From NCBI GenBank assembly GCA_035626435.1, contig DASPNQ010000075.1, positions 124 through 64,123 of the forward strand: a stretch of 64,000 nt of DNA. Direction: 5' to 3'. Under the pieces are notes generated by a model. The model worked only from the letters and a program-made list of their open reading frames with translations. It did no database searches and was not told where the DNA came from. Shown here piece after piece: positions 684 to 62,993 of the stretch. Numbering within the stretch: the stretch's first letter is position 1; the number at the start of each line of letters is the position of its first letter. The DNA comes from Vicinamibacterales bacterium. GTDB lineage: Bacteria; Acidobacteriota; Vicinamibacteria; Vicinamibacterales; UBA2999. The position numbers and the translations under genes were made by a program.

Positions 684-813
684 CGAGTCCTCCGGGACGG
701 GGGCGAGTGTAGCCGATTTCTGCCTTGCAAGCGGTCAGCGTTCGGCGTAACGTCTGCGCAAAAGTGTCGAGCGGCGGTTTTCCGATTGCAAGTTGCCTTT
801 CTGGAGGGTCGGT

Positions 814-3800
814 ATGCGAAATAGCCGGTGGCTGTTGACTACAGCCCTTGTCGGTCTTGTCATGGCACTGAGCACAGCAGGGGTGGCCTACGGACAGTCG
901 TTCCAAGGCGGCATGCGCGGCGCTGTCAAAGACGCGCAGGGCGTGATCCCTGGGGTGACCGTGACCCTGACCAACGACGCGACCGGGGTGTCGCGCGACA
1001 CCGTGTCGAACGATTCGGGTGAGTACTCGTTCCCGGCTCTCGACCCGTCGACGTATTCCATCAAGGCGTCGGTGCAGGGTTTCAAGACCTTTGAGCGTCG
1101 CGGCATCCGCATCGGCGCGCAGCAGTTCGTGACGCTGGACATCACGCTCGAGGTCGGCACCGTCGCCGAGACGATCACCGTCACCGCGGATGCGCCGCTG
1201 ATCGAAACCTCCAACGCCTCGCACTCGGAAGTCATCGACAGCAAGACGCTCGAGGCGCTGCCCAGTGTGGGGCGCAACGTCTTTTTGATGGCGGTCACGG
1301 TCCCGACGGTGCAGAGCAGCGGCGACACGCATTGGAACCGCATGCAGGACCAGACCGGCGCATCGTCGCTGTCGGTCGGCGGCGGCGGCGTGCGGGCCAA
1401 CAACTACCTGCTCGACGGCTATCCCATCACCGATTTGCAGAACCGCTCGACGACCAATCCAAGCCAGGAAATGGTCGACGACATTCGCGTGCAGGTGCAC
1501 ACCTACGACGCGGAGATGGGCCGCACCGGCGGCGGCGTCTTCAACACCGCGGCGAAGTCGGGTTCGAACCAGTTCCGGGGCGCCGGCTACTACCTGACGC
1601 GGCCGAGCGCGCTGGTGGGCGGCAACTTCTTCAACGAGATCCGCGGCATCAAGACCAACGACCAATACTGGCGGAACGGCGGCGGCGGTTTTGGCGGCCC
1701 GGTGTTCCGCAACAAGACGTTCTTCTTTGTTGCGGGCGAGGCCTACCGTGACGGGCAGTCGCAGAACAACACGCTGCACGTGCCGACGGCGGCGATGCGC
1801 AACGGTGACTTCAGCAACTTCCGCGATGCGCAGGGGCGGATGATTCCGATCTACGACCCGCTGACGACCGACGCCAACGGCAACCGCCAGCCGTTTCCGG
1901 GCAACATCATCCCGGCCAATCGCATCAATCCGGTCGGCCGCGCGCTGGTCAACGCACTACCGCTGCCGACATTACATCCCGAGTACGACGACAACTCGCC
2001 GAACCTGCCGGCACAGAACATCATCGAGTCCAAGGCGCGGCAGGTCTCGTTCAAGCTCGATCATCACTTCACCGACAACATCGGCCTCAACGGCTTGTAT
2101 CTGAATCAGAGCACCTTCGAGCCGGACGCGAACTACTTCCCCGACGCGCCATACGCGGCGCCCGCCTTCCACCTGCAGCGCGACGTCAACATGTTCGTGC
2201 TGAACAACACCTACATCATGGGACCGTCGACGGTAGCGACCTTCCGGGTCGGCATGAACAATTTCAGCGACGACAACGTGCTGCCGTACCCGTTCGACAT
2301 GCGTACCGTGCCTGGCATCAACCCGGCGTTCGCGAACGCGCTGCCGGTGCAGAAGTTCCCATCGCTGACGCTGACCGGCTATGCCGGCACCGGCAACAGC
2401 GGCTTGTCGGACACCAATTACTATTCATGGGGCCTCAACGGATCGGTGACGCGCCTGGCCGGCGGTCACAGCCTTAAGACCGGCGGCGACTATCGGATCA
2501 TCGGTGTCGATTCGCTGAACCACGGACAGTCGGCCGGCAGCTACACCTTCAGCGGCGTGATGACGCGCGCGAATCCGAGCGCGCAGAACGTCAATGCGAT
2601 CGCCGACATCCTGCTCGGCTATCCGGCGTCCGGCACGCTGGCCCTCAACAGCGACTTCAATCAGTTCGTGAAGTATTACGCGTGGTTCGCGCAGGACGAC
2701 TGGCGCGTCAGCGAGCGGCTGACGGTCAATTACGGGGTGCGGCTCGAACACGAAACCGGCCTGGCGGAGAAGGACAACCAGATGGTGGTCGGCTTCGATC
2801 GTGACGCGCTCAGCCCGATCAACATCACCATCCCGGCCGACCCGGTCGCTGGAACGCCGGCCCGCCAAGTGCGCGGCGGCTTGCTATTCGCCGGCCAGAA
2901 CGGCAACAAGACCGAGACCGGCAACGTGCCGCCAGTCAAATTCTCGCCGCGTATCGGCATGGCGTTCTCGCTCAACGACAAGACGGTGGTGCGCGCGGGC
3001 TATGGCTTGTTCTGGGGCCCCTGGCAGTCGGGCGTTCAGAGCACGCCCGGGTACTCGCAGACCAGCACGCTGCAGCAGGACACGCTGACGCCGATCACGT
3101 CGATCAACAACCCGTTCCCGAACGGCCTGACGCCAATCAGCGGCAACTCGCTGGGGATGATGACCGGCGTCAGCAGCGCTGTGACGTTCATCGATCCCGA
3201 TCGCGACGCGCCGCGCGTGCATCAGTACTCCGCGGATATCCAGCGGCAACTGCCCGGCGATATGAGCATCGGCGTGACTTATATGGGCTCGCTCGGCCGT
3301 CACCTGACGTGGGGCGGCACCGCGACGGGGATCGTCAACATCAACCAGGTCGACCCCAAGTACCTCTCGCTCGGGACCCGTCTGCTCGACAACCTCCCGA
3401 ACCCGTTCTTCGGCGTGGCCGGCGCCGGCGGGTTCACCTCGCGCGCGACGCTGCCGCGGAATCAGCTGCTGCGGCCGTTTCCACAGTTCGACAACGTCAA
3501 CATGATCTACAGCACGCTGGCACGCTCGAAGTACGACGCCGGCGTGATCTCGCTGACCAAGCGCGCGACCGGGTGGTTCGGCGGCCGATTGAGCTACACA
3601 TATAGCCGCCTCTACGACAACCAGTTCGCGCAGAGCAACTACTACTCCAGCTCGCCCGGCATCTTGAACCACTACGCGGCGGTGCCATGGTCCGAGTACT
3701 TCAATCCCGACGCCGAGTACGGACGCAGCCTGCTCGACTCGCCCCATAAGCTCGTCGCCAGCCCGATCATCCGCTTGCCGTTCGGGGAAGGGCACAAATG

Positions 3801-4311
3801 GCTCCAGAGCGGCGTCGGCAATCTGCTCGCGGGCGGCTGGACGGTGTCGTTCGTGATTCAAATGCAGAGCGGCTTCCCCATGGGCGTCAGCCAGAACACC
3901 AACAACACCAACCTGCTCGGCGCCGGACAGCGTCCGAACCTCGTGCCTGGCGTCGATCCACGCGTCGCGGGCAGCATTACCGACCGCCTGCGACAGAACC
4001 CCGACGACAATCTCTATCTGAATGCGAGCGCGTTCACGCAGGCGCCGCCGGGAACGTTCGGCAACGCGCCGCGCATTCTCGAGGGCGTGTATTCACCGTG
4101 GCGCAATTCCACGGACATGGCGTTGTCGAAGGATGTCGGCCTGGGCGGGCAGCGCCGCCTCAACGTGCGCGTCGACATGATCAACGTGTTCAACAACCCG
4201 TGGTTCGTGGCGCTCGGCAGCTCGGCGTTCGGCAACGCCAACTTCGGCCGCGTCACCGCGCAGGCCAACTACTCGCGAACGATGCAAGTTACGGGTCGAG
4301 TGTCGTTCTGA
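814..4311 (+). CDS. TonB-dependent outer-membrane receptor with N-terminal carboxypeptidase-regulatory-like domain
   Basis: ORF 793..4311. The ATG at 814 has a GGAGGG Shine-Dalgarno 7 nt upstream. Signal peptide ...AGVAYGQ. A CarboxypepD_reg-like segment (GVIPGVTVTLTNDATGVSRDTVSNDSGEYSFPALDPSTYSIKASVQGF) is followed by a plug and a long beta-barrel ending in a C-terminal F. Confidence 0.85.
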   Translation: MRNSRWLLTTALVGLVMALSTAGVAYGQSFQGGMRGAVKDAQGVIPGVTVTLTNDATGVSRDTVSNDSGEYSFPALDPSTYSIKASVQGFKTFERRGIRIGAQQFVTLDITLEVGTVAETITVTADAPLIETSNASHSEVIDSKTLEALPSVGRNVFLMAVTVPTVQSSGDTHWNRMQDQTGASSLSVGGGGVRANNYLLDGYPITDLQNRSTTNPSQEMVDDIRVQVHTYDAEMGRTGGGVFNTAAKSGSNQFRGAGYYLTRPSALVGGNFFNEIRGIKTNDQYWRNGGGGFGGPVFRNKTFFFVAGEAYRDGQSQNNTLHVPTAAMRNGDFSNFRDAQGRMIPIYDPLTTDANGNRQPFPGNIIPANRINPVGRALVNALPLPTLHPEYDDNSPNLPAQNIIESKARQVSFKLDHHFTDNIGLNGLYLNQSTFEPDANYFPDAPYAAPAFHLQRDVNMFVLNNTYIMGPSTVATFRVGMNNFSDDNVLPYPFDMRTVPGINPAFANALPVQKFPSLTLTGYAGTGNSGLSDTNYYSWGLNGSVTRLAGGHSLKTGGDYRIIGVDSLNHGQSAGSYTFSGVMTRANPSAQNVNAIADILLGYPASGTLALNSDFNQFVKYYAWFAQDDWRVSERLTVNYGVRLEHETGLAEKDNQMVVGFDRDALSPINITIPADPVAGTPARQVRGGLLFAGQNGNKTETGNVPPVKFSPRIGMAFSLNDKTVVRAGYGLFWGPWQSGVQSTPGYSQTSTLQQDTLTPITSINNPFPNGLTPISGNSLGMMTGVSSAVTFIDPDRDAPRVHQYSADIQRQLPGDMSIGVTYMGSLGRHLTWGGTATGIVNINQVDPKYLSLGTRLLDNLPNPFFGVAGAGGFTSRATLPRNQLLRPFPQFDNVNMIYSTLARSKYDAGVISLTKRATGWFGGRLSYTYSRLYDNQFAQSNYYSSSPGILNHYAAVPWSEYFNPDAEYGRSLLDSPHKLVASPIIRLPFGEGHKWLQSGVGNLLAGGWTVSFVIQMQSGFPMGVSQNTNNTNLLGAGQRPNLVPGVDPRVAGSITDRLRQNPDDNLYLNASAFTQAPPGTFGNAPRILEGVYSPWRNSTDMALSKDVGLGGQRRLNVRVDMINVFNNPWFVALGSSAFGNANFGRVTAQANYSRTMQVTGRVSF

Positions 4312-4377: not shown

Positions 4378-7300
4378 TTACTGCTGGCCCGGCCAGCGGC
4401 CGGGTGTATACGGCACGCCGGCCGCTTCCAGTTGCTGTTCGAACTTTCTGATCTCCGTTTCCAGCCCGCGCAGTTCCTTCACGACCGCCGCGAGATCTTC
4501 GTTCGCGATGGCGTAATTGCGCTGCTGCGTGCCCGTCGGCGCGCCGCTCAGCCCGCGCGCGCCCTGCACGGCGGAGTTGACCCGATCCTGCAGGGTCGTG
4601 GGATCGCCGGATTCGGTGCCGCGCAGCGTTTCGTCGCCGCGCATCCGCCGCAGTACCGCCAGCACGCGCGTGTCGAAACGCCGCGCCTCGTCGAGCAGCT
4701 TGACGTCGGCTGGAGAGTCGACGAGCGCGCGCTGAATTGCCTGCGTGCGGGTGCGCATCGAGTTGGCGGCTTCGAGCGTACCGGTGAACGAACGCTGCAG
4801 GCGGTCGACGTTGTTGTGATATTCGGTGTTCGCGGTGCGTTGGGCCGGCGTGAGCGTCAACCCGGGATCGGCCGTCACGGTCAGCGACTGCGGTTCGCCC
4901 AGCGTGACGGTTTCGCCGTTGACTCGCCGCGACAGCGTGACGCGATAGGTGCCCGGCGCGACAAAACTGCCGCCGCCGGTGCTGCCCGGGAAAATCGGCG
5001 GATCCTGATCCTGGCCGCCGCCCCCGCCGAACCCGCCGCCGCCCGTCGTCGGCGCGGTCATCCGCAAGTTCCAGACATAGCGATGCACGCCCCGTCCGCC
5101 AGGAACGGTCATGCGTCGGACGACGCGACCTGCGGCATCGCTCACCGTCAGAAACGTCTGCGGCGGTTCTTCGTCAGCCTCCGCGGTCAGCTCGGCTTGG
5201 GTGGGGTAGCGTGGCGACGCGTTCTTCGCAGCGGCCGCGCGATCCTGGTCCTGACGCCGCTGCCGCAACGTGCGAGGCGTCTCCTTGATCCAGTAGGTGA
5301 GCAGCGCGCCGAAGTAGCGGTTCTCCGACATCCAGAGGTTCTCACCCTGCGAGCCGCGTGACTTGCCCTGTTCCGGCACTTCGACGACCGCCGCTTTGGT
5401 CGGGAAGACATAGCCGTCCCGGTCAAATGTCGCCTGCGACATCTGCCGTAGCGGCGAATAGTCGTCGAGGACGTAGAAGCCGCGGCCAAACGTCGCCAGC
5501 ACCAGATCGTTCTCGCGCTCCTGAATCGCCAGGTCGCGCACGGGAATCGTCGGCAGGTTGTTGCGCAGGCGAATCCATTTCCTGCCGCCATCCACTGTGA
5601 AGTGCAGACCGTGTTCAGTGCCCACGAACAGGAGGTTCGGATTGACATGGTCTTCCGCGAACGACAGCACCGGCGAGTTCGCCGGCAGATCGCCGGCAAT
5701 CGACTCCCACGAGCCGCCGCGGTTGGTGCTCTTGTAGATGTAGGGCTTGAAGTCGCCGTTCTTGGTGTTTTCGTGCAGGGAGTACATCACCTGCTCGTCA
5801 TGCTTCGATGCCGCGACTTCCTGCACGTAGACGCCGTAGTTGCCGTAGTCCGGCAGTCCGGGCGGCCGCTCGCTGCGCCGCCAGTTCGCCCCGCCATCGA
5901 TCGACACCTGCATCAACCCGTCGTCGGTGCCGACAATCATCACGCCGTCGCGCCGCCGCGATTCGCTGACCGTCGAAATGTTGCCCCACGTCGCAGTGGA
6001 TTGGTGCTGCGCGATGGCTTCGGGCGGCCAGATGCGGCCCATCACCGGCAGCGTGTTGCGATCGGTCTGCCGCGTCAAATCGGGGCTGATCGGCTTCCAG
6101 CTGTTGCCGCAATCGTCGCTGCGAAACAGCCGGCTGGCGCCAAAGTAGAGCCGCGACGGACTGTGGGGGCTGATGATGAACGGCGATTCCCAATTGAAGC
6201 GGAGCGCCGGTTCACCGCGATCCTCCACGGGGCGAATGCTGACGCGCTCGCTGGTCCGCTTATCCAGCCGGACGATGCCGCCGTACTGGGACTCGGCGTA
6301 GATGATGTTGGGATCCGTCGGGTCGATGCGGACAACGAAGCCGTCGCCGCCGGTCACGACAAACCAGTCGTTGTTGGTCGAGCCGTTCGGACCTTTCGAT
6401 CGTGACGGGCCACCCAGCGTGCTGTTGTCTTGCGTGCCGCCGTAGATGTTGTAGATCGGCGAGACGTTGTCGACTTCGACGTTGTAGAACTGTGTCACCG
6501 ACAGATTGGCGAAATGCCGCCACAGGCGGCCTGCATCCCACGATTCGTAGAGGCCGCCGTCGCTGCCTTCGAGCAGATGATCGGTATTGTCGGGATCGAC
6601 CCAGATGACATGGTTGTCGACGTGCTTGTTGCGCTCGCCGATTTGGCGGAACGTCCGGCCGCCATCGTCGGAGACGAAGCTCTGCACCGACGGCACGTAG
6701 ATGCGATCGGCATTCTTCGGATCCGGATGGATGTTCTCGTAATACATCGGCTGCGCCTGCACGTTGGCGCGGCGTTCCCACGACTCGCCTCCGTCTTCCG
6801 ACGCATACAACGCGACCGGCCCGTCGGCCGATTCCACCTTGGCATAGACGAGACCACGACGCGCCGGTGAGAAGGCCGGCACGATGCGGCCGAGGTCGCC
6901 GCTGGGGAGGCCGCTGCGGATTCGCCGCCACGTCGCACCCCCATTGGTCGACTTATGCAGCCCGCTCTCGGGCCCGCCGTGGATCAGCGTCCACGTATGA
7001 CGGCGCCGCTGATGCGCCGATGCGATCAGCACGTCTGGATTCGTGGGATCCATGATCACGTCGCTGACGCCGGTGTGCTCGCTGATGTTGAGGATCTTGT
7101 TCCAGGTCGCGCCACCATCGGTGGTCTTATACAAGCCACGATCGCCGCCGGCGCTCCACAACGGGCCGTAGGCCGCGACGTAGAGCACGTTCGAGTCGCG
7201 CGGATCGATGACGATTCGGCCGATGTGCTCCGAGTTCCTCAAGCCGACATTGCGCCACGATCGCCCCGCGTCGTCGCTGCGATAGAGACCATCGCCCCAA

Positions 7301-18127: not shown

Positions 18128-18700
18128 ATGCTGGTCGCGGTAATCGCGGCACTGCTGTTACAGCAGACGCCCGCGGAGCGGGAAATCGAGCGCCTCGCCA
18201 TGGACGGCTGGCGCGCGGCCCGGGCGGTGGCGCCGAAGGGCGGCGCGCTGGAGCTGCTCGGGCCGGTCAACGCGCGTCTCAAAGACCTCGACGCCTTTCC
18301 GCATACCGCCGCCCGCTACGCGGAAATCGCGATTCGCGCCGCTGTGGCCGCCGCACAGGAAGAGCGGGAGGAAATGATGGTCCTGCTCGCGCACGCACGA
18401 GACCTCTCGAAGCAGATGGCGCTGGCCGGTGCCGCGCCACGCTGGCCATTGCCGATCGACGAGATTGAAGGCGAGCTGTGGTTCGAGGTCGATCAGTTCG
18501 CGGAAGCCCGCGACGCGTTCGAGCGCGCGACGCAGGCTTCGCCCACGCCGAATGCGTGGGTCGGATTGGCGCGCGCGGCCGACAAACTCGGTGATGCCGT
18601 GACGGCATGCCGTGCCTATACCAGCGCCCAGGCGACGCCAGGGTTGCCACCATCGGTCGACCTGGAAATTGCCGTCTACCTGTTGAAGTGCAGTGCGTAA
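18128..18700 (+). CDS. Hypothetical helical (TPR-like?) protein
   Basis: 190-aa ORF with coding-like composition and a helical repeat character near the C-terminus. No family recognised. Confidence 0.4.
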   Translation: MLVAVIAALLLQQTPAEREIERLAMDGWRAARAVAPKGGALELLGPVNARLKDLDAFPHTAARYAEIAIRAAVAAAQEEREEMMVLLAHARDLSKQMALAGAAPRWPLPIDEIEGELWFEVDQFAEARDAFERATQASPTPNAWVGLARAADKLGDAVTACRAYTSAQATPGLPPSVDLEIAVYLLKCSA

Positions 18701-18747
18701 CGGGTTTTGCCGGGTGCGGCGGCCGTCCCCGTTACAATGAGCGGTAT

Positions 18748-20697
18748 ATGAGAGGGATGCGCAGGATGGTCCATCCTCTCGTTCGCGATGCTCGCGGCGC
18801 CGCGCTTCGGCCGGCGACGTGGGACGAGGCGCTCGAACGCGTCGCTCGTGGTTTTACCGCGACGCGGGACACGCACGGCGGCCAGGCCTTCGGCCTGTTC
18901 AGCTGCTCGAAAAGCACGAACGAGATGAACTACGCGGCGCAGAAGTTCGCCCGCGTGGTGATGGGCTCCAACAACCTCGACAGCTGCAACCGTACGTGAC
19001 ATGCCCCGAGCGTCGCCGGTCTGGCGACGGCATTCGGCATGGGCGGGGGGACCAGCTCGTACCGCGAGATTGAAGAAACGGATTGCATCCTGCTCTGGGG
19101 ATCGAACGCCAGGGAGACGCATCCGATCTTCTTCCACCACCTGCTCAAGGGCGTGAAGCGCGGGGCGAAGCTCTACGCAATCGATCCACGGCGCACCAGC
19201 TCCGCGGAGTGGGCGGACGTGTGGGCGGGCCTCGACGTCGGTACCGACATCGCGCTGGCCAACACCATGGCGCGCGAGATCATCTGCAGCGGCCTGACCC
19301 ACGACGAATTCATCGAACATGCGACGACCGGCTTCGCCGAATATCGTGACCTGGTCATGCCGTGGACGCTCGACCGGGGCGCGCTGGAAACCGGCGTGCC
19401 CGCGGCGGTGATTCGGGAGATGGCGCATACCTACGCGACCGCGCCACGCGCGATCATCTGCTGGACCCTCGGCATCACCGAGCATCACACCGCCGTGCAC
19501 AACGTGCTCGCGTTGATCAACCTGGCGCTGCTGACCGGTCACGTCGGCCGGTGGGGATCGGGGTTGAATCCGCTGCGCGGTCAGAACAACGTGCAGGGCG
19601 GTGGCGACATGGGCGCGCTGCCGGATCGGCTGCCGGGGTTCCAGCACGTCGAGAACGATGCCGTGCGGGCGAAGTTCGACGCCTTTTACGGCGTCGCGAT
19701 CCCGCCGAAGAAGGGCTGGCATCTGTCGGGGATGTTCGATGCGATGGAACGTGGCGAGCTGAGGGCGCTCTACGTGATCGGCGAGAACCCGTTGCAATCG
19801 GAGGCCGATCAGCATCGCGCGACGCGGCTGATCGAGGGGCTCGAGTTTCTCGTCGTGCAGGACATCTTCCTGACCGAGACCGCGCAACGGGCCGATGTCG
19901 TGTTGCCGGCGGCGGCCGGCGCGTTCGAATCCGAAGGTACCGTCACCAACAGCGAGCGGCGCGTGCAGCGGGTCCGCAGGACGCTCGATCCACCCGGAGA
20001 GGCGCGCGAGGATTTGAAGATCATCGTCGACATCGCGCGCCGCATGGGCCACGACTGGCCGGATGATGCCGAGTCGATGTGGAACGAGGTGCGGCAGCTG
20101 TCGCCCGTGCACGCGGGGATGAGCTACGCGCGGCTGGACGCGTTGGACGGCCTCCGCTGGCCGTGCTACGACGAGGAGCATCCGGGCGAGATGTTCCTGC
20201 ACTCGCGGCTGTGGGAGCGCCCGGTCAAGGGACCGCGCGCGCCGTTTTCGATCGTGCGGCACGCGCTGCCGCTCGACGAGTTGAGCGACGACTTCCCGCT
20301 GCGCCTGACCACCGGCCGCCGCCTCGCCGAATACAACACCGGCGTGCAGACCGGCTCGTATGCCTACCCGACGCGTCGCGGCGAAACGCTCGACGTGTCG
20401 CCGGAAGATGCGGAGCGCCTCGGCCTGTCGGAGGGACAGCGGGTGCGCATCTGCTCGCGCCGCGGCTCGGTCGTAGCGCCGGTGCATCTCGACGAAGCGC
20501 TCCGTCCGGGTTTGACCTTCATGACCTTCCATTTTCCCGACGACGTCTCGACCAACCTGCTGACGAACGACAAGGTCGATCCGCTCGTCGGCACGGCGGA
20601 GTTCAAGGCCACGGCGATTCGCATCGAGAAGCTGGACGCGGCTGCCGTGCACGAGGATCCGGCCGTCGCGGCGGAGGCCTCCCGCTCCGGGCGCTGA
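18748..20697 (+). CDS. fdhA: Formate dehydrogenase catalytic (molybdopterin) polypeptide with in-frame TGA (putative selenocysteine) at 18997..18999; lacks the N-terminal Fe-S domains
   Basis: Track ORFs 18607..18999 and 19039..20697 are in the same frame. Read-through gives MVHPLVRDARGAALRPATWDEALERV...NYAAQKFARVVMGSNNLDSCNRT-[TGA]-HAPSVAGLATAFGMGGG. This aligns, from memory, with the E. coli FdhF segment ...VSWDEAL...[32 protein letters not shown]. The C-terminus has the molybdopterin dinucleotide-binding tail (DPLVGTAEFKATAIRIEKL). The start could be any of ATG 18748, 18757 or 18766. Confidence 0.8.
19006..19037 (+). promoter_or_regulatory. Putative bacterial SECIS stem-loop
   Basis: Perfect 7-bp stem CGTCGCC (19011-19017) with GGCGACG (19023-19029) and loop GGTCT. 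The hairpin starts 11 nt after the TGA. The stem extends through CCGAG (19006-19010) with TTCGG (19033-19037) across a 3-nt bulge. Confidence 0.6.
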
Positions 20698-22469
20698 TGG
20701 ATCTGCACATCGTCGGCGCGGAACCGAGCGAAGCCGAGCGGGCTGCCGTCGATCGACTGCTGGGCCCGCCGGTGAGCGGCTGGGGCGGCGGCGAGCGTGA
20801 TATCGCGCGCGACGGCCGTGCGGCCGTCGGTGGCCGCAGCCTGACCGGCGATCGCGATCGCCTGCTCCCGGCGCTGCATGCGGTCCAGGACGCGATGGGG
20901 TGGATCAGCCGCGGCGCGCTCAATTACATCTGCCGGCGTTTGACGGTACCGCCGGCGGAGGCGTGGGGTGTCGTGACTTTCTATCACCTGCTCGCCACCG
21001 AGCCGCAGTCCGGCAACATCGCGCACGTCTGCGACGACATCGCTTGTCGCCTCCACGGCCTCGACACGCAGATCGCCGACTTGACGAGCCAGGGCTTCAC
21101 GGTGAAACGCTCGCCGTGCCTGGGCCAATGTGATTACGGCGCGGCCGCGCTGATCACGCGCGCCGGCAAAGACCCGCAGCGATTTGTCGTGAAGCCCGCG
21201 GTGGTACCGCACCTCGGCGCCCTGGGCGCCGCGCGCCTGCTCAAGCGCATCGGACGCGTCGATCCCTCCAGCCTCGATGAGTATCGCCGCCACGGCGGGT
21301 ATTCGGCGCTCGCGAAAGCGATCGAGATGGGGCCTGCTCGAGTGATCGCCGAAGTGACGGCGGCCAAGCTGATGGGCCGCGGCGGCGCGGCGTTCCCGAC
21401 CGGCCGCAAGTGGGAGGCGGTCGCACGCGAATCGAGCTATCCGCATTACGTGGTGTGTAATGCCGATGAATCGGAACCGGGCACGTTCAAGGATCGTGTC
21501 GTCATGGAACAGGATCCGTTTGCGGTGATCGAGGCGATGACGATCTGTGGATTCGCGACCGGCGCCGCGCGCGGCTTCATTTACATCCGCGGCGAATATC
21601 CCGAAGCGGAACGCGCGATCGGTCACGCGATCGCGCAGGCGGCCGCGGCCGGCTATCTCGGCCCGGACATCGCGCGATCGGGTTTTGCGTTCGGCATCGA
21701 GATCCGGCGCGGCGGCGGCGCCTATATCTGCGGCGAGGAGACGGCGCTGTTCAATTCGATCGAAGGCAAGCGCGGTGAGCCGCGCTCGAAGCCGCCGTTC
21801 CCGGCCCAGTCCGGGCTGTTCGGCAAGCCGACGGTGGTCAACAACGTCGAAACGCTGGTCAACGTGCTCGACATCGTCAACGAGGGAGGCGAGGCCTGGG
21901 CCAACAGCGGGACGCCTGCGTCGACGGGGTCGCGCCTGTTTTGCCTGTCCGGACATGTCGTCAATCCCGGCCTCTACGAGATCGAGTGCGGACGGACGCT
22001 GCGAGAAGCGATTGAGCTCGCCGGCGGCATCCATCCGGGACGTCGCCTGCAGGCAGTGCTGCTTGGCGGCGCTGCCGGGACGTTCGTCGGGCCGGACGCC
22101 CTCGACATGCCGCTGTCATTCGAGGGCGCGCGCGCGGCCGGGGCGACGCTGGGATCGGGTGTCATCATGGTGTTCGACGACACCGCCGACTTGCACGACA
22201 CCCTGCGCCGCATCGCCGAGTTCTTCAAGCACGAATCGTGCGGCCAGTGCGTGCCGTGCCGCGTCGGAACGGTGAGGCAGCTCGAGATGCTGTCGGCCTC
22301 CGCTGGCGGCGCGCGCGTCGCCGATCGAACCTACGCGGAGCTGGCTCAAGCGATGCGCGATGCGTCAATCTGTGGCCTGGGACAGACGGCGGCGTCAGCC
22401 ATCGAGTCTGCGTTCGCCAATGTGTTGAGACCGAGGCCTGAGGATCCCAACAGCGGAGGACACGTGTGA
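20697..22469 (+). CDS. NuoE-like [2Fe-2S] / NuoF-like (FMN, NAD, [4Fe-4S]) fusion protein, the diaphorase unit of an NAD-linked formate dehydrogenase
   Basis: The ATG at 20697 overlaps the upstream stop (TGATG). The N-terminal part has Cx4C...Cx3C (HVCDDIAC, SPCLGQC). The remainder is the 51-kDa family (GRGGAAFPTGRKW, NADESEPGTFKDR, ESCGQCVPCRVG). Confidence 0.85.
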   Translation: MDLHIVGAEPSEAERAAVDRLLGPPVSGWGGGERDIARDGRAAVGGRSLTGDRDRLLPALHAVQDAMGWISRGALNYICRRLTVPPAEAWGVVTFYHLLATEPQSGNIAHVCDDIACRLHGLDTQIADLTSQGFTVKRSPCLGQCDYGAAALITRAGKDPQRFVVKPAVVPHLGALGAARLLKRIGRVDPSSLDEYRRHGGYSALAKAIEMGPARVIAEVTAAKLMGRGGAAFPTGRKWEAVARESSYPHYVVCNADESEPGTFKDRVVMEQDPFAVIEAMTICGFATGAARGFIYIRGEYPEAERAIGHAIAQAAAAGYLGPDIARSGFAFGIEIRRGGGAYICGEETALFNSIEGKRGEPRSKPPFPAQSGLFGKPTVVNNVETLVNVLDIVNEGGEAWANSGTPASTGSRLFCLSGHVVNPGLYEIECGRTLREAIELAGGIHPGRRLQAVLLGGAAGTFVGPDALDMPLSFEGARAAGATLGSGVIMVFDDTADLHDTLRRIAEFFKHESCGQCVPCRVGTVRQLEMLSASAGGARVADRTYAELAQAMRDASICGLGQTAASAIESAFANVLRPRPEDPNSGGHV

Positions 22470-23365
22470 GCGAGCCGATTTGGTTCACCCTGCCGCCACG
22501 GTCGACGGCCGATCCAAAGCCGCCGGCGCCGGCCGACAAGCCGCTGGTTCGGGTCACGATCGACGGGCGTTCGATCGACGTGCCGCAAGGCACGACGATC
22601 ATCGACGCCTGCAAGATCCTCGGCATCGAGATCCCCACGCTGTGCTATCTGGAGACCCTGACTCCGGTCAACGCCTGCCGGGTCTGCGTCGTCGAAGTCG
22701 AGGGCGCGCGGGTGCTCGCTCCGGCGTGTTCTCGCGCCGTCGAAGCCGGCATGATGATCAAGACCCGATCGCCGCGCGTCGATCTGTCACGCAAGCTCGT
22801 GCTGGAATTGCTCGCTTCGTCCGTCGACCTGTCGACAGCCCCCTCGCTTCAGCCGATGATGCAGGAGTACGGCGCCAATCCGGAGCGGTTTGGCCACGGC
22901 GAAACCGTCGCCCAGCCCGTGAAGGTCGACAACGATCTCTACATCCGCGATTACAGCAAGTGCGTGCTTTGCTACAAATGCGTTGAAGCGTGCGGGCACG
23001 ATGCCCAGAACACGTTTGCGATCGCCGTTGCAGGTCGTGGCTTCGATGCGCACATTTCCACCGAGCTCGATGTCCCGCTTCCCGAGTCCGCGTGCGTCTA
23101 TTGCGGCAACTGCATTGCGGTGTGTCCGACCGGCGCGCTGATGGCGAAGCCCGAATTCGATTTGAGGGAAGCGGGCGAGTGGCGCCCGCAGGAGCAGACC
23201 GCCACCGACACGATTTGTCCGTATTGCGGCGTCGGTTGCACGCTGACCGTTCACGTGCAGGATCGCCAGATCATCAAAGTCACGTCGCCGTTCGACAACG
23301 AGGTGACGCGCGGGAATTTATGCGTCAAGGGGCGGTTTGGCTTCGAGTACGTGAATAACGGGTAG
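22466..23365 (+). CDS. Fe-S polypeptide equivalent to the N-terminal part of an FdsA/NuoG-type formate dehydrogenase alpha chain
   Basis: The GTG at 22466 overlaps the upstream stop (GTGTGA) and GGAGGA lies 6 nt upstream. Contains a 2Fe-2S ferredoxin-type fold (TLCYLETLTPVNACRVCVVEVEG) and two 4Fe-4S motifs (CVLCYKCVEAC, CVYCGNCIAVCP). The molybdopterin-oxidoreductase 4Fe-4S domain CPYCGVGC...LCVKGRFGFEYV comes next and is followed immediately by the stop. Confidence 0.85.
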   Translation: MSEPIWFTLPPRSTADPKPPAPADKPLVRVTIDGRSIDVPQGTTIIDACKILGIEIPTLCYLETLTPVNACRVCVVEVEGARVLAPACSRAVEAGMMIKTRSPRVDLSRKLVLELLASSVDLSTAPSLQPMMQEYGANPERFGHGETVAQPVKVDNDLYIRDYSKCVLCYKCVEACGHDAQNTFAIAVAGRGFDAHISTELDVPLPESACVYCGNCIAVCPTGALMAKPEFDLREAGEWRPQEQTATDTICPYCGVGCTLTVHVQDRQIIKVTSPFDNEVTRGNLCVKGRFGFEYVNNG

Positions 23366-23498: not shown

Positions 23499-23852
23499 AT
23501 GCCTCAGGATCGCGACCGCGTCGATCGTTTTCTTCCCCTCAAGCCGTTCGTGCTCGACGTATTGCTCGAGCTGGCCGAAGGCAAACGTCACGGTTGGGGT
23601 CTGATTCGGCACATTCAGCAACACGACGGCGGCGGCAGGATTCTGCCCGCCAACTTCTACCGCACGCTGCGGGCGCTGCGGGATGACGGGCTGATCGAGG
23701 AAACGGCAGGCGACGCCGAGGCGGATCCTGCCGAACGCCGCCAGTACTTCAGCCTGACAACGCTTGGCGCGAAAGTGGCGCGCGCGGAAGTGAAACGGCT
23801 CGAAGCGCTGGTCGTCGATCCTCGCGCCAGGCGCTTGCTGAGGAGCCGCTAG
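23499..23852 (+). CDS. PadR-family transcriptional regulator
   Basis: Winged-helix PadR signature LKPFVLDVLLELAEGKRHGWGLIRHIQ...FYRTLRALRDDGLIEE. The stop lies 2 nt before the permease start. Confidence 0.85.
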   Translation: MPQDRDRVDRFLPLKPFVLDVLLELAEGKRHGWGLIRHIQQHDGGGRILPANFYRTLRALRDDGLIEETAGDAEADPAERRQYFSLTTLGAKVARAEVKRLEALVVDPRARRLLRSR

Positions 23853-23854
23853 CC

Positions 23855-26512
23855 ATGGCGATCAGCCGGACGTTGTATCGGGTGTTGCTGCGGCTCTGTC
23901 CTCCGGATCTCCGCCGCGAGTTCGGCGCCGAGATGGAGGCCCTGTTTGTCGCCGATCTCGCGCGCGCCCGGGGCCTGGGCCGGCTTGCGGTCTGGGCACG
24001 AGCGCTTGCCGACGTCCTGCGGCATGGATTCGGGGCGCGCAACGATGGTTGGCGTCGCTTCCGCAGGACATCCGCCTACGTCGAATACGAGACCGGGCGA
24101 TGGACGTTCGAGACATGGCGTTATGACGTGCGGCACGCGATCAGGGCGATGGGCCGTCAGCCCGCCACCAGCGCAATCATCGTGCTGACCCTGGCTTTGG
24201 CGATCGGCGCGAACACCGCAGTGTTTTCGGCGGTGCAGGCCGTGTTATTGCGGCCGTTGCCGTATCCGCAGCCCGAACGCCTCGTGCGGGTGTACGAGAA
24301 GCGTCCGAACGAAGGCGTGTTCACGAACCCCGTGTCGCCGGCGGACTTCCTCGACTGGGCCCGGCTCAGCACGACATTCGCCTCGGTGGCGGCACTCAGC
24401 GAGGCCGCCTTCGATCTCACCGGCGCCGGTGACCCCGAACGGGTGCCCGGCGCCATGGTGACGGCGTCGTTGTTCGAGGTGTTCGGCGTCCGCGTAATGC
24501 ACGGCCGCGGCTTCGCGGCGGAGGAAAACCTGGCCGGCCGCAATCGCGTCGCCGTACTGAGTCACGCGTTGTGGCAGCAGCGCTTCGGCAGCGATTCCAG
24601 CGTCGTTGGACGCACCATCATGTTGCAGGGATTGCCGCATCAAGTGATCGGGGTGCTACCGCCGGACGTAGCGTTCCCCGCGGGAGAGACGCGCATCCTG
24701 ACGCCCGCCGTGCTGCAGGCCGGCGCCGAGCCGCCGCAGCGCTCGGCACATTACCTCCAGGTCTACGGCCGGTTGAAGCCCGACGCGACGCTCGAACAGG
24801 CGCGCGCCGAAATGGATCGCATCGGGCGAGACCTGGAGGCGCAATATCCCGACACGAATCGAGGACACGGCTCGCACGTCGAGGCACTGGCCCCCGATAT
24901 GGTCAAGAGCGTGCGCGGGATGCTGCTGATCCTGATGGTGGCGGTCGCGTTCGTCTTGCTGATCGCCTGCATCAACGTCACCAACCTGCTGCTTGCGAAA
25001 GCCGCGGGGCGCCGTCGCGAGATGGCGCTGCGCGCGGCCATCGGCGCCGGACGTGCGCGGCTGCTCAGGCAGATGCTCGTTGAAGCGGTCGTCCTGGCGT
25101 TCGTCGGCGGCGCCGCCGGCCTGCTCGTCGCGGTATGGGGCGTGCAAATGCTCGCCGTTCAGATGCCACCGGCGCTGCGCCTCGATGACTCAGTCGTCTT
25201 CAGCCTCCCCGTACTCGCGTTCACGATCGCGGCGTGTGTGGGAACGGGGCTAGTGGCGGGCATTCTGCCGGCATGGCACTTCCTGCACGGCGATCCCGGC
25301 GAGACCTTGAAAGCCGGCGGCCGCGCGCCGGTGAGCCTGCGCAAGCGGCTGCGCTTCGGCTTGATCGTCGCGGAAATCGCGTTGACGTCGCTGGTGCTCG
25401 TCGGCGCCGGTTTGACGCTGCGCAGCTTTCAGCGCGTGTTGACGGAGCCTTCGGGAATCGACACCGCCGGGCGACTGACGTTCAACGTGCGGTTGCCACG
25501 AGCGCGGTATGCCGACGGCGAGGCGCTGACGCGCTTTTACGCCGAGCTCGAGCGTCGCTTCGCCGCGGATCCGGCAATTCGTCGCGCGGGCGCGACGAGC
25601 GCGCTGCCGCTCACGCCCGCCGATCAGCGCAACGGGATCGTGATTGATGGACTGGAGCGGACCGCGGAGGACGGGCCGACCCGCGCCCACCCGCGCTCGG
25701 TCACGCCCGGATATCTACCCGCCGCCGGAATGCAGGTGATGCAGGGCCGTGGGCTTGTCGACGCCGATCGCACCGGGCCCAGGGTCACGGTCATCAACGA
25801 AACCATGGCGCGGCGCTATTGGCCCGGCCGATCGCCGCTTGGTGCGCGAGTGCGATTCTCCGCGGAGGACGACCGCTGGTACGAGATAGTGGGCATCGTC
25901 GGCGACGTCAAACATTGGGGCCTCGACGCGCCGGCCAATCCCGAAATGTATGTGGCGTTCGAACAGTACCCGCAGGCCAGCATGTCGTTCGTCCTGGAAG
26001 CGGCCGCCAACCCGCTGACGCTGATTCCAAACGTGCACGCGGCTGTGCGGGCAATCGACCCGAACCTGCCGCTGTCAGACGTGCGCACGTTTGACGTCGT
26101 GGCTTCGCGATCGGTCCAACAGCGGCGCTTTACGATGCTGTTGCTGACGTGCTTCGCCGTGCTGGCGCTGGTGCTTGCGGCCGCAGGCATCTACGGCGTG
26201 ATGGCGCACGTCGTCGCGCTGCGAACGGCGGAGATCGGTGTGCGGTTGACGCTCGGTGCGAAACCTTCCGCGGTGATGCGCCAGGTACTTGGCGAGGGTG
26301 CGATGCAGACCGCGATCGGCCTCGCGATTGGTCTCGGCGCGTCGCTCGCGTTGATGCAGGGCTTGCGGACGATCCTGTTCGGGATTGAACCGACGGATCC
26401 GTTCACGCTCGTGTCGGTGGGAGCAGCGCTGATGCTCGTCGCGCTACTCGCCGTGACCGTCCCCGCGCTGCGGGCGATGCGCGTCGATCCGGTCACGGCG
26501 CTGCGACAGTAG
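23855..26512 (+). CDS. Duplicated FtsX/MacB-type ABC permease (ADOP-type orphan permease)
   Basis: 885 aa. The N-terminal cytoplasmic segment is followed by two modules, each TM + MacB-like periplasmic domain + FtsX 3-TM bundle (both halves end ...DPxxALR). No ATPase gene is adjacent. Confidence 0.85.
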   Translation: MAISRTLYRVLLRLCPPDLRREFGAEMEALFVADLARARGLGRLAVWARALADVLRHGFGARNDGWRRFRRTSAYVEYETGRWTFETWRYDVRHAIRAMGRQPATSAIIVLTLALAIGANTAVFSAVQAVLLRPLPYPQPERLVRVYEKRPNEGVFTNPVSPADFLDWARLSTTFASVAALSEAAFDLTGAGDPERVPGAMVTASLFEVFGVRVMHGRGFAAEENLAGRNRVAVLSHALWQQRFGSDSSVVGRTIMLQGLPHQVIGVLPPDVAFPAGETRILTPAVLQAGAEPPQRSAHYLQVYGRLKPDATLEQARAEMDRIGRDLEAQYPDTNRGHGSHVEALAPDMVKSVRGMLLILMVAVAFVLLIACINVTNLLLAKAAGRRREMALRAAIGAGRARLLRQMLVEAVVLAFVGGAAGLLVAVWGVQMLAVQMPPALRLDDSVVFSLPVLAFTIAACVGTGLVAGILPAWHFLHGDPGETLKAGGRAPVSLRKRLRFGLIVAEIALTSLVLVGAGLTLRSFQRVLTEPSGIDTAGRLTFNVRLPRARYADGEALTRFYAELERRFAADPAIRRAGATSALPLTPADQRNGIVIDGLERTAEDGPTRAHPRSVTPGYLPAAGMQVMQGRGLVDADRTGPRVTVINETMARRYWPGRSPLGARVRFSAEDDRWYEIVGIVGDVKHWGLDAPANPEMYVAFEQYPQASMSFVLEAAANPLTLIPNVHAAVRAIDPNLPLSDVRTFDVVASRSVQQRRFTMLLLTCFAVLALVLAAAGIYGVMAHVVALRTAEIGVRLTLGAKPSAVMRQVLGEGAMQTAIGLAIGLGASLALMQGLRTILFGIEPTDPFTLVSVGAALMLVALLAVTVPALRAMRVDPVTALRQ

Positions 26513-28236: not shown

Positions 28237-30630
28237 TCAATCCTGCCGGATCGCCACCACCGGATCGACGCGCGCCGCTCGGCGCGCCGGCAGCACGCAG
28301 GCCGCCGCCGTGACCAGAACAATCGCCAGCGGCAGCAGGATGAACGTCAGCGGATCGTGCGTGGTCACCCCAAACACGAGGCTGCCGAGCACGCGCGACA
28401 GCAGCAGCGCCGCCGGCACGCCCAGGGCCACGCCGGCAATCGCATACACTGCGCCTTGCGCGACGACAGAGGTGGCCATCGACGATGGCGTGGCGCCGAG
28501 CGCGAGACGCACTCCAATCTCACGCTCGCGCTGCCGCACGCGATACGCGACGACGCCGTACACCCCGACCAGCCCCAGTGCGAGCCCGGTCGCCGCAAAA
28601 ACCGTCAGCAGAAAGCCGAGCAAACGAGGGCGGCCTAACGTTCCCGCGATCAGAGTCGTATAGGGCTGCAGCTCCGCGACCGGGACAATCGGATCGACCT
28701 CGAAGGCGATTTGCCGGATCGCCGCGGCCAGTTGCTCCGGCGCGCCCTGCGTGCGCACGACCATCGCCATCGGAAACATGAACGTCTGCGTCAATGGCCT
28801 GAAGATTTCTGGCAGTGGTTCCTTGTCGAGGCTGACATGGCGAACGTCGCCCACGACGCCGACGATCTGCACGGGCTCGTCCTGGCCCGTACGTCCGCTC
28901 CGCACGATCATCGTCTGCCCGACCGCGCGGGACGGCTGGTCGAAGAACCGGCGCGCGAGCGTTTCGTTGACGATGGCCACCGCCGCGGACTGCGTCTGAT
29001 CGCCGTCAGCAAACGTCCGACCGTACCTCAGCGGGATCCTCATCGTCTGGAAGTAGTTGCCGTGCACGAACCGCCAACCAACCGTGGGTGGCTGCTCGCC
29101 GGGCGCGAGCGTCTGATCGATGCGGCGCGCGCCGGTCGTCCACGAGTATCCGCTCATCGGCAAGTGGCCGGCGAATGCGGTGTTGTCGACACCTGGCAGG
29201 GCGGCGACGCGTGCCCGCACCTGCTCGAGATAAGGCAACCCGGTGGTCAGCGCGCGATATTTCGACGTCGTCTGCAATCTGAACGTCAAGACGCCGCGTG
29301 GATCGAAACCTGGATCGACGCGCTGCAGGTTCCAGAGCGATCGCAGCATCAGCATCGAGCCAATTCCGAGGACCACGGCCACGCCGATCTGCACAGCGAC
29401 CAGCGATCCGAGCGCCCGGCGACGGCCGGGCGTGTCGGTCGTCCGCGACTGTCGCAGCAGCGGCTGCATCGTCGGCCGCGCCGCCAGCGCCGCGGGGACG
29501 AGGGCGACGAGCATTGCGACGGAGACGGAGGCGGCGAGGACCGTCGCAAGTACGGTCCAATCGAGCTCGATTCGACCGAGGTGGGGCACTTCCGCCGGAA
29601 TCTGCGCGACCAGAGCCGGCAACAGCGCCCGCGCGACGACCACGCCGGCGAGAGATCCGATAACGGCGAGGACGGCTTGTTCGACGAGGACCTGCTCTAT
29701 GAGCCGCCGCCGCGAGGCGCCGAGCGCGGAACGCAGCGCCATTTCGCCGACGCGCTCGATCGATCGGCCAAGCACCAGCGTCCCGAGATTGATCGCGGCC
29801 AGCATCAAGATCAGTCCGACCGCGCCGAGCAGGATCAACAACGCGGGCCGCACGTCCCCCGTGATCGATTCCTGAAACGACTGTACGCGCATGGTTCGGC
29901 CCCAATCGCTCGGGCGGGCCAGCTCCTTGCGCATCGCCGGAACCAGTTCGCTCAGCTCACGGGTCGCGGTTTGTACAGTGGCTTCGCGGGTCAGGCGGCC
30001 AACCGCGAGTGAGAACGTCGCTTTGAATTGCGGTGTACCTGGCGTCCAGGCCAGCGGCGCCCACAGATCCGTTCCCGGCTCGAAGACCTCAAAGCCGGGC
30101 GGCATCACGCCGACGATGGTGTGTGGTTCCTGATCGAGCTGGATGATGCGGCCAATCACGGCGGGATTGGCGCCGAAGCGACTTCGCCACACGCCGTCGC
30201 TCAACACCACGATACGTTGGGCGTTGGGCGCACTGTCACCGGGTTCAATCACGCGGCCAAGCGCAGCCGTTGCGCCGAGCGTTCGAAACAGGTTGTCCGA
30301 GGTCCGCGCCCCGGTGACCTTGAGGGGCTCGCCGCCGTCGGCGACGAGACCCATCATCCAACCGCCAGACAACGCCGCGATGTGTTCGAAACTGCGTGTT
30401 CGACTCCTCCAGTAATCGACATCCTCGTTGGAGACGAAGACGTTTGGCGCGATCGCCACAAGGCGATCGGGCTCGGGAAAGGGCAACGGCCGCAGCAGCA
30501 CGCCACGAACGACGGAGAACACCGCCGCGTTGGCGCCCGCGCCTAGTGCGAGCAGCGTCAGGGCCACCACGGCAAAACCGGGGCGTCGAAACAGATTCCG
30601 TAAGGCGAGCGACAGGGCAGGGGATCGCAT
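28237..30630 (-). CDS. Duplicated FtsX/MacB-type ABC permease (second ADOP-type orphan permease)
   Basis: 797 aa. Typical N-terminus LRNLFRRPGFAVVALTLLALGAGANAAVFSVVRGVLLRPLPFPEPDRLV. Two FtsX modules. C-terminal ...RVDPVVAIRQD. Confidence 0.85.
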   Translation of the reverse strand: MRSPALSLALRNLFRRPGFAVVALTLLALGAGANAAVFSVVRGVLLRPLPFPEPDRLVAIAPNVFVSNEDVDYWRSRTRSFEHIAALSGGWMMGLVADGGEPLKVTGARTSDNLFRTLGATAALGRVIEPGDSAPNAQRIVVLSDGVWRSRFGANPAVIGRIIQLDQEPHTIVGVMPPGFEVFEPGTDLWAPLAWTPGTPQFKATFSLAVGRLTREATVQTATRELSELVPAMRKELARPSDWGRTMRVQSFQESITGDVRPALLILLGAVGLILMLAAINLGTLVLGRSIERVGEMALRSALGASRRRLIEQVLVEQAVLAVIGSLAGVVVARALLPALVAQIPAEVPHLGRIELDWTVLATVLAASVSVAMLVALVPAALAARPTMQPLLRQSRTTDTPGRRRALGSLVAVQIGVAVVLGIGSMLMLRSLWNLQRVDPGFDPRGVLTFRLQTTSKYRALTTGLPYLEQVRARVAALPGVDNTAFAGHLPMSGYSWTTGARRIDQTLAPGEQPPTVGWRFVHGNYFQTMRIPLRYGRTFADGDQTQSAAVAIVNETLARRFFDQPSRAVGQTMIVRSGRTGQDEPVQIVGVVGDVRHVSLDKEPLPEIFRPLTQTFMFPMAMVVRTQGAPEQLAAAIRQIAFEVDPIVPVAELQPYTTLIAGTLGRPRLLGFLLTVFAATGLALGLVGVYGVVAYRVRQREREIGVRLALGATPSSMATSVVAQGAVYAIAGVALGVPAALLLSRVLGSLVFGVTTHDPLTFILLPLAIVLVTAAACVLPARRAARVDPVVAIRQD

Positions 30631-62422: not shown

Positions 62423-62993
62423 AAATCGGCAGCCACGAAAACACGACAAAGTAGTAATAGGCGGCATTCTCGCTCGCATCGACAAAACGATGCGCATCCA
62501 GCGGACCCGTAAAGAAAATCGCCGCGATCACGGCGGTGTCGACGACGTCGGTGATGACGTGCGCCGTATGCGCGCCGAGCAGCATCCACACGATCGAGCC
62601 GTAGGCGTTGGTGTCCCACCAGCAGTTCAGCGTGGTGAATTCGAAGGCGCGCAGCACCAGAAACGCGATGGCGAAGCCGAGGCTCACCGCGATCCACAGG
62701 CGTGTCCGACCGACATCGAGTTGTTCCGCGGCCTTTTTCGTGAGGTGGTTCGGAATGCAGCTCGCGAGCACGACGATCGTCGTGAGCGTGCCCCACATCA
62801 GATCAGGCGGGGCAACGCCGGGCGGCCATTCCGGGACGCGCCACTTCAAATAGATGTAGGCCGCGATCATCAGGGCGAACGCGGTCCCCTCGATCGCGAT
62901 CAATCCCAGCGTCGCCCACCACAGGATGCTGCGGTGGCCGAACGCGAAGCTGGGCAAGCGCGACACGTCGACGACCGGTACCGTCGCGCTCAT
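62388..62993 (-). CDS. ctaE: Heme-copper oxidase subunit III (short, about 5-TM form)
   Basis: 201 aa. LLGAHTAHVITDVV corresponds to the subunit III FHGxHV region. ATGA overlap with the subunit I stop. Confidence 0.6.
   Translation of the reverse strand: MSATVPVVDVSRLPSFAFGHRSILWWATLGLIAIEGTAFALMIAAYIYLKWRVPEWPPGVAPPDLMWGTLTTIVVLASCIPNHLTKKAAEQLDVGRTRLWIAVSLGFAIAFLVLRAFEFTTLNCWWDTNAYGSIVWMLLGAHTAHVITDVVDTAVIAAIFFTGPLDAHRFVDASENAAYYYFVVFSWLPIYAVIYLAPRLV

Follow-up and report, generated by a model that had tools for sequence, protein, structure and literature searches.

A conserved in-frame UGA, very probably read as selenocysteine, in the catalytic subunit gene of a split-alpha formate dehydrogenase operon from an uncultured Acidobacteriota genome

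On the plus strand of a 64-kb stretch from an uncultured soil-type Acidobacteriota genome (Vicinamibacterales bacterium, contig DASPNQ010000075.1; the whole 64,000-nucleotide stretch is referred to as the window), two open reading frames (ORFs), 18607..18999 and 19039..20697, together cover a gene that encodes a formate dehydrogenase (FDH) catalytic subunit. Both are in the same frame, and only the TGA at 18997–18999 and the following 39 nt (13 sense codons) stand between them. The locus thus raises the question whether two proteins, a decayed gene, or a single enzyme with a selenocysteine (Sec) residue at the position of the TGA is encoded here. The original prediction, made from the nucleotide sequence of the window, had proposed a Sec-containing FDH whose UGA is followed by a hairpin resembling a Sec insertion sequence (SECIS). 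The comparative analysis reported here indicates that the UGA is very probably read as Sec within one FDH gene of 649 residues.

Results

An intact reading frame with TGA at the metal-ligand position

Translation of 18748–20697 revealed the TGA at 18997 as the only internal stop, with the peptide ...SNNLDSCNRT preceding and HAPSVAGLATAFGMGGG following it. The shared frame with the TGA and 13 sense codons between the two ORFs, as originally described, was thus confirmed by coordinates and translation. With Sec at residue 84, the predicted peptide across this position is SCNRT-U-HAPSVAGLATAFGMGGGTSSYR. The G+C content at third codon positions was coding-like on either side of the TGA (0.87–0.90), codon bias was intact on both sides, and no other disruption of the frame was found. 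On both strands of the window, this was the sole TGA flanked on each side by at least 40 open codons with a coding-like G+C content at third positions. The same TGA was present in three independent assemblies of the source organism. A genome-wide reassignment of UGA was considered and rejected, as TGA serves as the ordinary stop codon for 15 of 40 well-supported ORFs of the window, including the FDH gene's own end.

Three ATG codons (18748, 18757, and 18766) are candidate starts of the catalytic subunit, and the choice between them is uncertain. The N-terminal pattern of the homologs, M(S/G/R)(R/G)M(T/R)R(I/L)VHPLVRD, favors a start at 18748 or 18757. In the public gene call (ENA assembly ERZ27257312, contig k141_1883055), the gene is split into products of 77 aa, starting from ATG 18766, and 552 aa. 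Gene callers had been expected to report fragments of 83 and 552 aa; the split and the 552-aa product were indeed found, and a fragment of 83 aa results from ATG 18748, but the public call gives 77 aa.

For domain and profile searches, Cys was substituted for the internal stop. Pfam analysis identified the Molybdopterin (PF00384, 229.7 bits) and Molydop_binding (PF01568, 98.9 bits) domains, while the Molybdop_Fe4S4 domain harboring FS0 (PF04879) was absent from the catalytic subunit. The NCBIfam model for FDH subunit alpha (TIGR01591) was matched over model positions 52–672 with 622.5 bits, compared with a cut-off of 666.25. The best-matching relatives with solved structures were FdhF of the Thermoanaerobacter kivui hydrogen-dependent CO2 reductase (7qv7_S, 478 bits), an F420-dependent FDH (9t1s_L, 459.1 bits), Escherichia coli FdhH (1aa6, 446 bits by phmmer), FdsA (9wxb_B, 435 bits), and Rhodobacter capsulatus FdsA (6tg9_A, 433 bits). 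Residue 84 aligned with the Cys of T. kivui FdhF, the Sec (given as X) of the F420-dependent FDH, and U140 of the E. coli K-12 FdhH sequence, which places the TGA in the column of the Mo-ligating Sec or Cys directly before the conserved His, as had been claimed. The predicted catalytic motif consists of U84-H85 and R277, matching U140-H141 and R333 of the E. coli enzyme; the canonical FDH motif is (C/U)-H ... R-G-Q/H (PMC8808070).

Conservation of the TGA codon in 80 species

Homologs were collected by a scan of one genome per species, yielding 80 loci with encoded proteins 69–89% identical, from Acidobacteriota, Chloroflexota (Limnocylindria), Bryobacterales, Rokubacteria, Polyangia, and others. 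Codon 84 was TGA in all 80 species representatives, with sense coding on either side; it was preceded by SNN(I/L/V)DSCNRT and followed by HAPSV(A/V)GL. In a set of 5.8 billion proteins, the best 120 matches were all 494–593 aa long and covered just 76–85% of the query, indicating that they are split at the same place. With the 83-aa N-terminal part as query, nearly all of the best 150 representatives were fragments of 53–150 aa that ended at query residue 83. Neither a nonsense mutation nor an error of assembly nor a pair of independent genes can account for the conservation of the TGA together with the uniformly split database proteins.

A lone in-frame stop is the usual mark of a recent pseudogene, and one of the homologs (L037, from an Acidobacterium sp. 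Baikal-G1 metagenome-assembled genome) carries the TGA but is frameshifted downstream of it. In this locus, an additional G in a G-run approximately 45 nt past the TGA (around 6040–6050) shifts the FDH frame; an error in assembling the homopolymer is the probable cause, rather than decay to a pseudogene. A pseudogene, or a sequencing or assembly error at the TGA, is at odds with the identical codon in three independent assemblies and in 80 of 80 species, with the lack of other disruptions and the intact codon bias on both sides, and with the synonymous constraint tied to the TGA described below. The comparative data effectively refute such an origin, to which we assign only the slightest probability. 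The original prediction had named close relatives with a Cys codon and no hairpin, combined with further damage to this copy, as evidence that would speak against it; the close homologs carry TGA, and no other lesions were found.

The TGA could also be a true stop, giving an approximately 80-aa peptide and a 552-aa oxidoreductase starting from ATG 19039, and automatic gene calling gives just that for the source contig as well as for every close homolog. Such a 552-aa product would be without the metal ligand and the catalytic His, and its Mo domain would be incomplete. The called start (ATG 19039–19041) corresponds to Met97 in the conserved FG(M/A)GGG motif. This residue is Ala in the Chloroflexota homologs, so that there is no conserved restart and the truncated homologs have been called at varying lengths, from 494 to 593 aa. 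Moreover, the 13 intervening codons are strongly conserved at the protein level, and the homologs with Cys at this position are continuous. Termination with two separate products is therefore very improbable.

Synonymous constraint confined to the hairpin

The hairpin, CGTCGCC (19011–19017), GGTCT (19018–19022), and GGCGACG (19023–19029), begins 11 nt past the TGA. Perfect 7-bp hairpins occurred at 1.1 per kb, giving a chance of approximately 2% for one to lie 5–25 nt after a given codon, and of 0.6% if GU is additionally demanded in the loop. Taken by itself, the source sequence thus places the hairpin only weakly beyond chance. We consider the comparative data decisive for a joint function of hairpin and UGA, as predicted from the following patterns of sequence conservation.

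Because the peptide encoded by the hairpin is conserved in itself, synonymous sites were examined, using a codon alignment of 77 species with 234 columns in which an amino acid specified by at least four codons was conserved in at least 85% of the sequences. The mean codon entropy of these columns was 1.22 bits. Zero entropy was found in four columns only, codons +5, +6, +8, and +9 after the UGA (GTC, GCC, CTG, and GCG), all of which lie in the hairpin (permutation p < 5e-6 for the lack of synonymous variation in the hairpin codons). Codon +7 was GGT in 73 of 77 sequences (0.29 bits), an uncommon choice in a GC-rich genome; elsewhere in the gene the lowest codon entropy was 0.24 bits. Codons +5 to +9 are exactly those forming the stem and loop.

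RNAalifold analysis of 56 distinct sequences gave a 6-bp stem with a 5-nt loop, in which all 336 of 336 cells were paired. Among these sequences, the stem showed 21 single-side changes to G-U pairs and one compensatory change, from C-G to U-A (in locus L009). The seventh pair, C19011-G19029, extends the core stem in the source genome and was broken in 27 of 56 sequences (alignment pair 21–39). The perfect 7-bp stem described at the outset was accordingly recovered in the source sequence, whereas the conserved core comprises just 6 bp and GGUCU. Likewise, the lower stem CCGAG/TTCGG is present here but not conserved, its middle pair (alignment pair 18–45) being broken in 30 of 56 sequences.

The likeness to the minimal E. 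coli fdhF SECIS, which the original prediction had drawn, was borne out in part. In the K-12 sequence the TGA is at codon 140 and is followed by HGPSVAGL, as stated there, and the UGA occupies the same column in both genes, ...NN(V/L)D(C/S)C(A/N)R(V/T)-U-H(G/A)PSVAGL. In both, the hairpin is formed from the same Val-Ala-Gly-Leu codons, GGUC of the loop coincides with the same Gly-Leu codons at a distance of 22 nt from the U of the UGA, and the catalytic His and the arginine of RGQNNVQG are conserved. The E. coli element differs in its 4-nt GGUC loop and interrupted stem, which contains a bulged U; the element described here has a 5-nt GGUCU loop and a perfect 6–7-bp stem without the bulge, and is thus no copy of it. 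The SECIS of Moorella thermoacetica fdhA that was co-crystallized with SelB reportedly shares the GCC-GGUCU-GGC architecture; a search of the literature for this string returned nothing. The loop G residues sit 19 and 20 nt after the UGA. Bacterial SECIS elements have been described as a 6–8-bp stem with a conserved loop G approximately 20 nt after the UGA (PMC4605307), and the sequence of the hairpin at 19012–19028 fits this description.

Absence of the hairpin from Cys-type homologs

A few full-length database matches (P0140 and P0141), followed by a second genome scan, provided a Cys-type set from Actinomycetota (loci L084–L163; Streptomyces, Nonomuraea, Nocardiopsis, and others), with the gene at approximately position 4250 in each locus. 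In 79 actinobacterial homologs, Cys was encoded at the position of residue 84 (TGC in 48, TGT in 31), and the following peptide, HAPSVAGL, was identical. The codons for Val (GTG 40, GTC 38), Ala (GCC 42, GCG 34), Gly (GGC 47, GGG 15, GGT 11, GGA 6), and Leu (CTG 55, CTC 21) varied, and the hairpin was found in none of the 79 genes. As Cys-type genes encoding the same peptide vary freely, the nucleotide constraint travels with the TGA. The catalytic subunit of the Cys-type operons is approximately 62% identical and also lacks the Fe4S4 domain, and the three-gene order described below was the same in 75 of 80 loci; the differences lie in TGC or TGT in place of TGA, the absent hairpin, and the free synonymous sites. 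The Sec-type and the actinobacterial Cys-type operons form a natural pair of lineages.

Selenocysteine machinery and alternative decoding of the UGA

A number of results weigh against decoding as Sec. The minimum free energy z-score of the hairpin was −1.48, which is not statistically striking alone. A formal covariation test of a two-helix model with the 56 sequences did not reach significance, the stem being almost invariant. No Rfam family was matched at the gathering threshold in the whole window, and in a permissive search the SECIS_3 family (RF01989) reached 19.6 bits compared with a gathering threshold of 63 (E = 0.051 on 251 nt). A tRNA scan of the window identified no tRNA gene and hence no tRNA-Sec; tblastn with SelA, SelB, and SelD from Chloroflexota gave no match in the window or the Acidobacteriota loci, and Pfam analysis of 30 further ORFs of the window revealed no sel genes. 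Of the checks proposed initially, the Rfam search thus returned nothing at threshold, but the sub-threshold alignment to SECIS_3 spans the full length of the model (positions 1–59) and keeps both the UGA and the loop GUCU in register; by the Rfam criterion the hairpin is not a member of this family. The alignment of homologs gave TGA in all 80, but the co-variation hoped for was limited to the one compensatory change.

In the Chloroflexota relatives, the machinery is encoded next to the FDH. A tRNA-Sec gene was located at most 6 kb upstream of the orthologous FDH gene in 25 Chloroflexota loci, and in one of these (L030) the sel genes scored above the NCBIfam cut-offs (selB 267.8 versus 242, selA 437.9 versus 268, selD 338.7 versus 125). 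Across the related loci, selD was present in 33, selA in 18, and selB in 15. A scan of genome contigs with Chloroflexota SelA, for which the peptide patterns were poor, returned three loci, from Chloroflexota only. In L030 (172–4786) and a further 24 loci from Limnocylindria-type Chloroflexota, among them L020, L031, L034, and L035, selB, selA, and tRNA-Sec on the minus strand and selD on the plus strand are located directly upstream of the orthologous Sec-FDH operon. The SelD of these loci is the Cys form (CGGCAAK), so that the FDH may be the main or only selenoprotein of Limnocylindria-type Chloroflexota.

Among bacterial selenoproteins, FdhA is the most widespread; it is often encoded beside sel genes, and selenoproteins in Acidobacteria and Chloroflexi have been on record since 2006 (PMC1794560). 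The Chloroflexota loci resemble the mycobacterial and proteobacterial fdhA-selABC clusters, in which the FDH, often the sole selenoprotein, is linked to selC-selA-selB and selD (PMC1794560, PMC13449736). In contrast to these clusters, no sel genes were found within 6–19 kb of the FDH gene in the window and its Acidobacteriota relatives.

The UGA could instead be decoded as Cys, by a selC*-like tRNA-Cys(UCA) or an allo-tRNA opal suppressor, or it could be passed by near-cognate read-through. UGA-reading Cys tRNAs resembling tRNA-Sec have been reported, as have suppressor allo-tRNAs in Acidobacteria (PMC5389517); the lack of Sec machinery in the window and in the Acidobacteriota loci would agree with such decoding, and Cys functions at this position in the actinobacterial homologs. 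However, the reported occurrences of selC* were in anaerobic Firmicutes, Thermodesulfobacteria, Nitrospirae, and Proteobacteria, with none in Acidobacteria (PMC5389517), and Chloroflexota relatives with the same TGA and hairpin have canonical tRNA-Sec, selA, selB, and selD genes adjacent. In addition, the hairpin shows SelB-type features, and a lineage capable of using Cys is expected to fix TGC or TGT, as happened in Actinomycetota. Decoding of the UGA by any of these routes is accordingly regarded as improbable, if somewhat less so than a true stop, and insertion of Sec is strongly preferred.

From the conservation described above and from knowledge of bacterial Sec decoding, we infer the following course of Sec insertion. 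The mRNA just past the UGA would fold into the 6–7-bp stem (19011/12–19028/29) with the GGUCU loop. SelB-GTP carrying Sec-tRNA(Sec) would bind this hairpin and bring its Sec to the A-site UGA, and as a consequence of this delivery the ribosome would not terminate at 18997.

A three-gene operon for a predicted NAD(H)-linked complex

The features of the locus are compiled in Table 1. The catalytic subunit gene is followed by two genes for further FDH components. The start of the second gene overlaps the fdhA stop (TGATG), and its end overlaps the GTG of the third (GTGTGA), which suggests that the three genes are translationally coupled.

Table 1. Predicted features of the FDH operon in the window
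Feature	Position	Strand	Details
fdhA-type selenoprotein gene; FDH catalytic subunit with Mo/W-bis-pyranopterin guanine dinucleotide (predicted)	18748..20697	+	649 residues; Sec = residue 84; stop TGA 20695-20697
UGA Sec codon, residue 84, metal ligand (predicted)	18997..18999	+	TGA in 80/80 homologs; ligand-column alignment
Catalytic His85, conserved (predicted)	19000-19002	+	Codon directly after UGA
Extended hairpin	19006..19037	+	Lower stem CCGAG (19006-19010)/TTCGG (19033-19037); present here, not conserved
Conserved SECIS core (predicted)	19012..19028	+	6-bp stem 19012-19017/19023-19028; apical loop GGUCU 19018-19022
Arg277 codon in PLRGQNNVQG, conserved FDH active-site arginine	19576..19578	+	Corresponds to E. 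coli FdhH Arg333 in PVRGQNNVQG
NuoE-NuoF fusion, diaphorase module (predicted)	20697..22469	+	590 aa; Pfam and NCBIfam matches
Fe-S subunit (predicted)	22466..23365	+	299 aa; Pfam Fer2_4, Fer4, Molybdop_Fe4S4 (residues 246-298)

The 590-aa protein comprises a 2Fe-2S_thioredx domain, the flavin mononucleotide (FMN)- and NAD(H)-binding 51-kDa domain Complex1_51K, and an NADH_4Fe-4S domain. Its residues 52–572 match the beta subunit of the Methylorubrum extorquens tungsten FDH (7e5z_B) full-length, and the NuoF-like part matches the FDH beta subunits of Cupriavidus necator (6vw7_B) and R. capsulatus (6tg9_B). The 299-aa protein contains a 2Fe-2S domain, two 4Fe-4S ferredoxin motifs, and the C-terminal FS0 domain that is missing from the catalytic subunit; it ends in CPYCGVGC...C and matches TIGR01591 at positions 1–50 (51.5 bits). 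In FdsA chains, residues 7–304 align with the 299-aa protein and 308–952 with the catalytic subunit. The alpha subunit is thus divided at the boundary of the FS0 and Mo domains, with the Fe-S half encoded two genes downstream of the catalytic half. The NuoE-NuoF gene adjoins the FDH gene in most related loci, and most Sec-type loci share the three-gene order.

The assignment to the FdhF type made in the original prediction did not hold. E. coli FdhH works with hydrogenase 3 and is monomeric, its N-terminus carrying a 4Fe-4S domain of its own; here the FS0 domain is encoded by a separate gene and a NuoE-NuoF fusion follows, and Pfam analysis of the ORFs of the window revealed no hydrogenase gene. 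The lack of an own Fe4S4 domain and the NuoE/F and NuoG-like neighbors argue against an enzyme of the FdhF/hydrogenlyase type and in favor of an NAD-linked enzyme similar to FdsABG and Fdh1AB. The cofactor modules are the same as in FdsABG of R. capsulatus and C. necator and in M. extorquens Fdh1AB. Unlike in these enzymes, alpha is distributed over two polypeptides and the gene order is permuted, with the Fe-S part last; the ligand is Cys in FdsA and Sec here. No fdsC- or fdsD-like gene was noticed in the operon, in which no search was aimed at them.

Judging by their domains, the three products would assemble into a soluble, NAD(H)-linked oxidoreductase for formate/CO2 that belongs to the FdsABG/Fdh1AB type and has alpha in two polypeptides. 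The NuoE-NuoF fusion would carry FMN and the NAD(H) site, and the 299-aa protein would supply the 4Fe-4S cluster beside the metal centre and the rest of a NuoG-like wire. Mo or W as the metal, specificity for NAD(H), and assembly of the three subunits are predicted from sequence comparison.

Downstream of the operon, 23499–26512 (+) encodes a PadR-family regulator and then an 885-aa MacB_PCD/FtsX double-permease protein, and a second permease of the MacB_PCD/FtsX type (797 aa) is encoded at 28237–30630 (−). Genes of this type are typical of Acidobacteriota and seem unrelated to the FDH operon. The window further encodes a fragment of cytochrome c oxidase subunit I (62990–63997, −) and TonB-dependent receptors of the CarboxypepD_reg type (793–4311, +; 43272–45530, +).

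Discussion

In public records, the source contig and hundreds of related proteins appear as a fragment of approximately 80 aa and a truncated "YjgC/formate dehydrogenase major subunit" of 530–590 aa. Due to this split annotation, an intact FDH and a dependence on selenium go unnoticed when the metabolism of abundant soil Acidobacteriota and Chloroflexota is reconstructed. The value of the finding lies mainly in annotation, and it is nothing new in principle, as recoding of this kind is known and is routinely missed by gene callers.

The split-alpha FDH operon is, to judge from the loci compared, a widespread and already sequenced architecture; no biochemical description of such a three-gene FDH was found in the literature. 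The split alpha subunit with its Sec and Cys sister lineages offers a modest lead for the enzymology of CO2-reducing FDHs. The cytochrome oxidase and the TonB-dependent receptors point to an aerobic, soil-type acidobacterial host, which would be a notable setting for a Sec-dependent metal FDH.

Tentatively, and with less than even confidence, we propose that these operons represent a soil-wide, biochemically uncharacterized clade of three-subunit NAD(H)-linked FDHs with alpha split at the FS0/Mo boundary, which switches between Sec with a SECIS element (Acidobacteriota, Chloroflexota, Rokubacteria, and Polyangia) and Cys without the hairpin (Actinomycetota). If this is true, the clade would provide a clean natural system for studying the gain and loss of SECIS elements, and if, in addition, the Sec form runs in aerobes, it could be an oxygen-tolerant, high-activity catalyst for turning CO2 and formate into one another.

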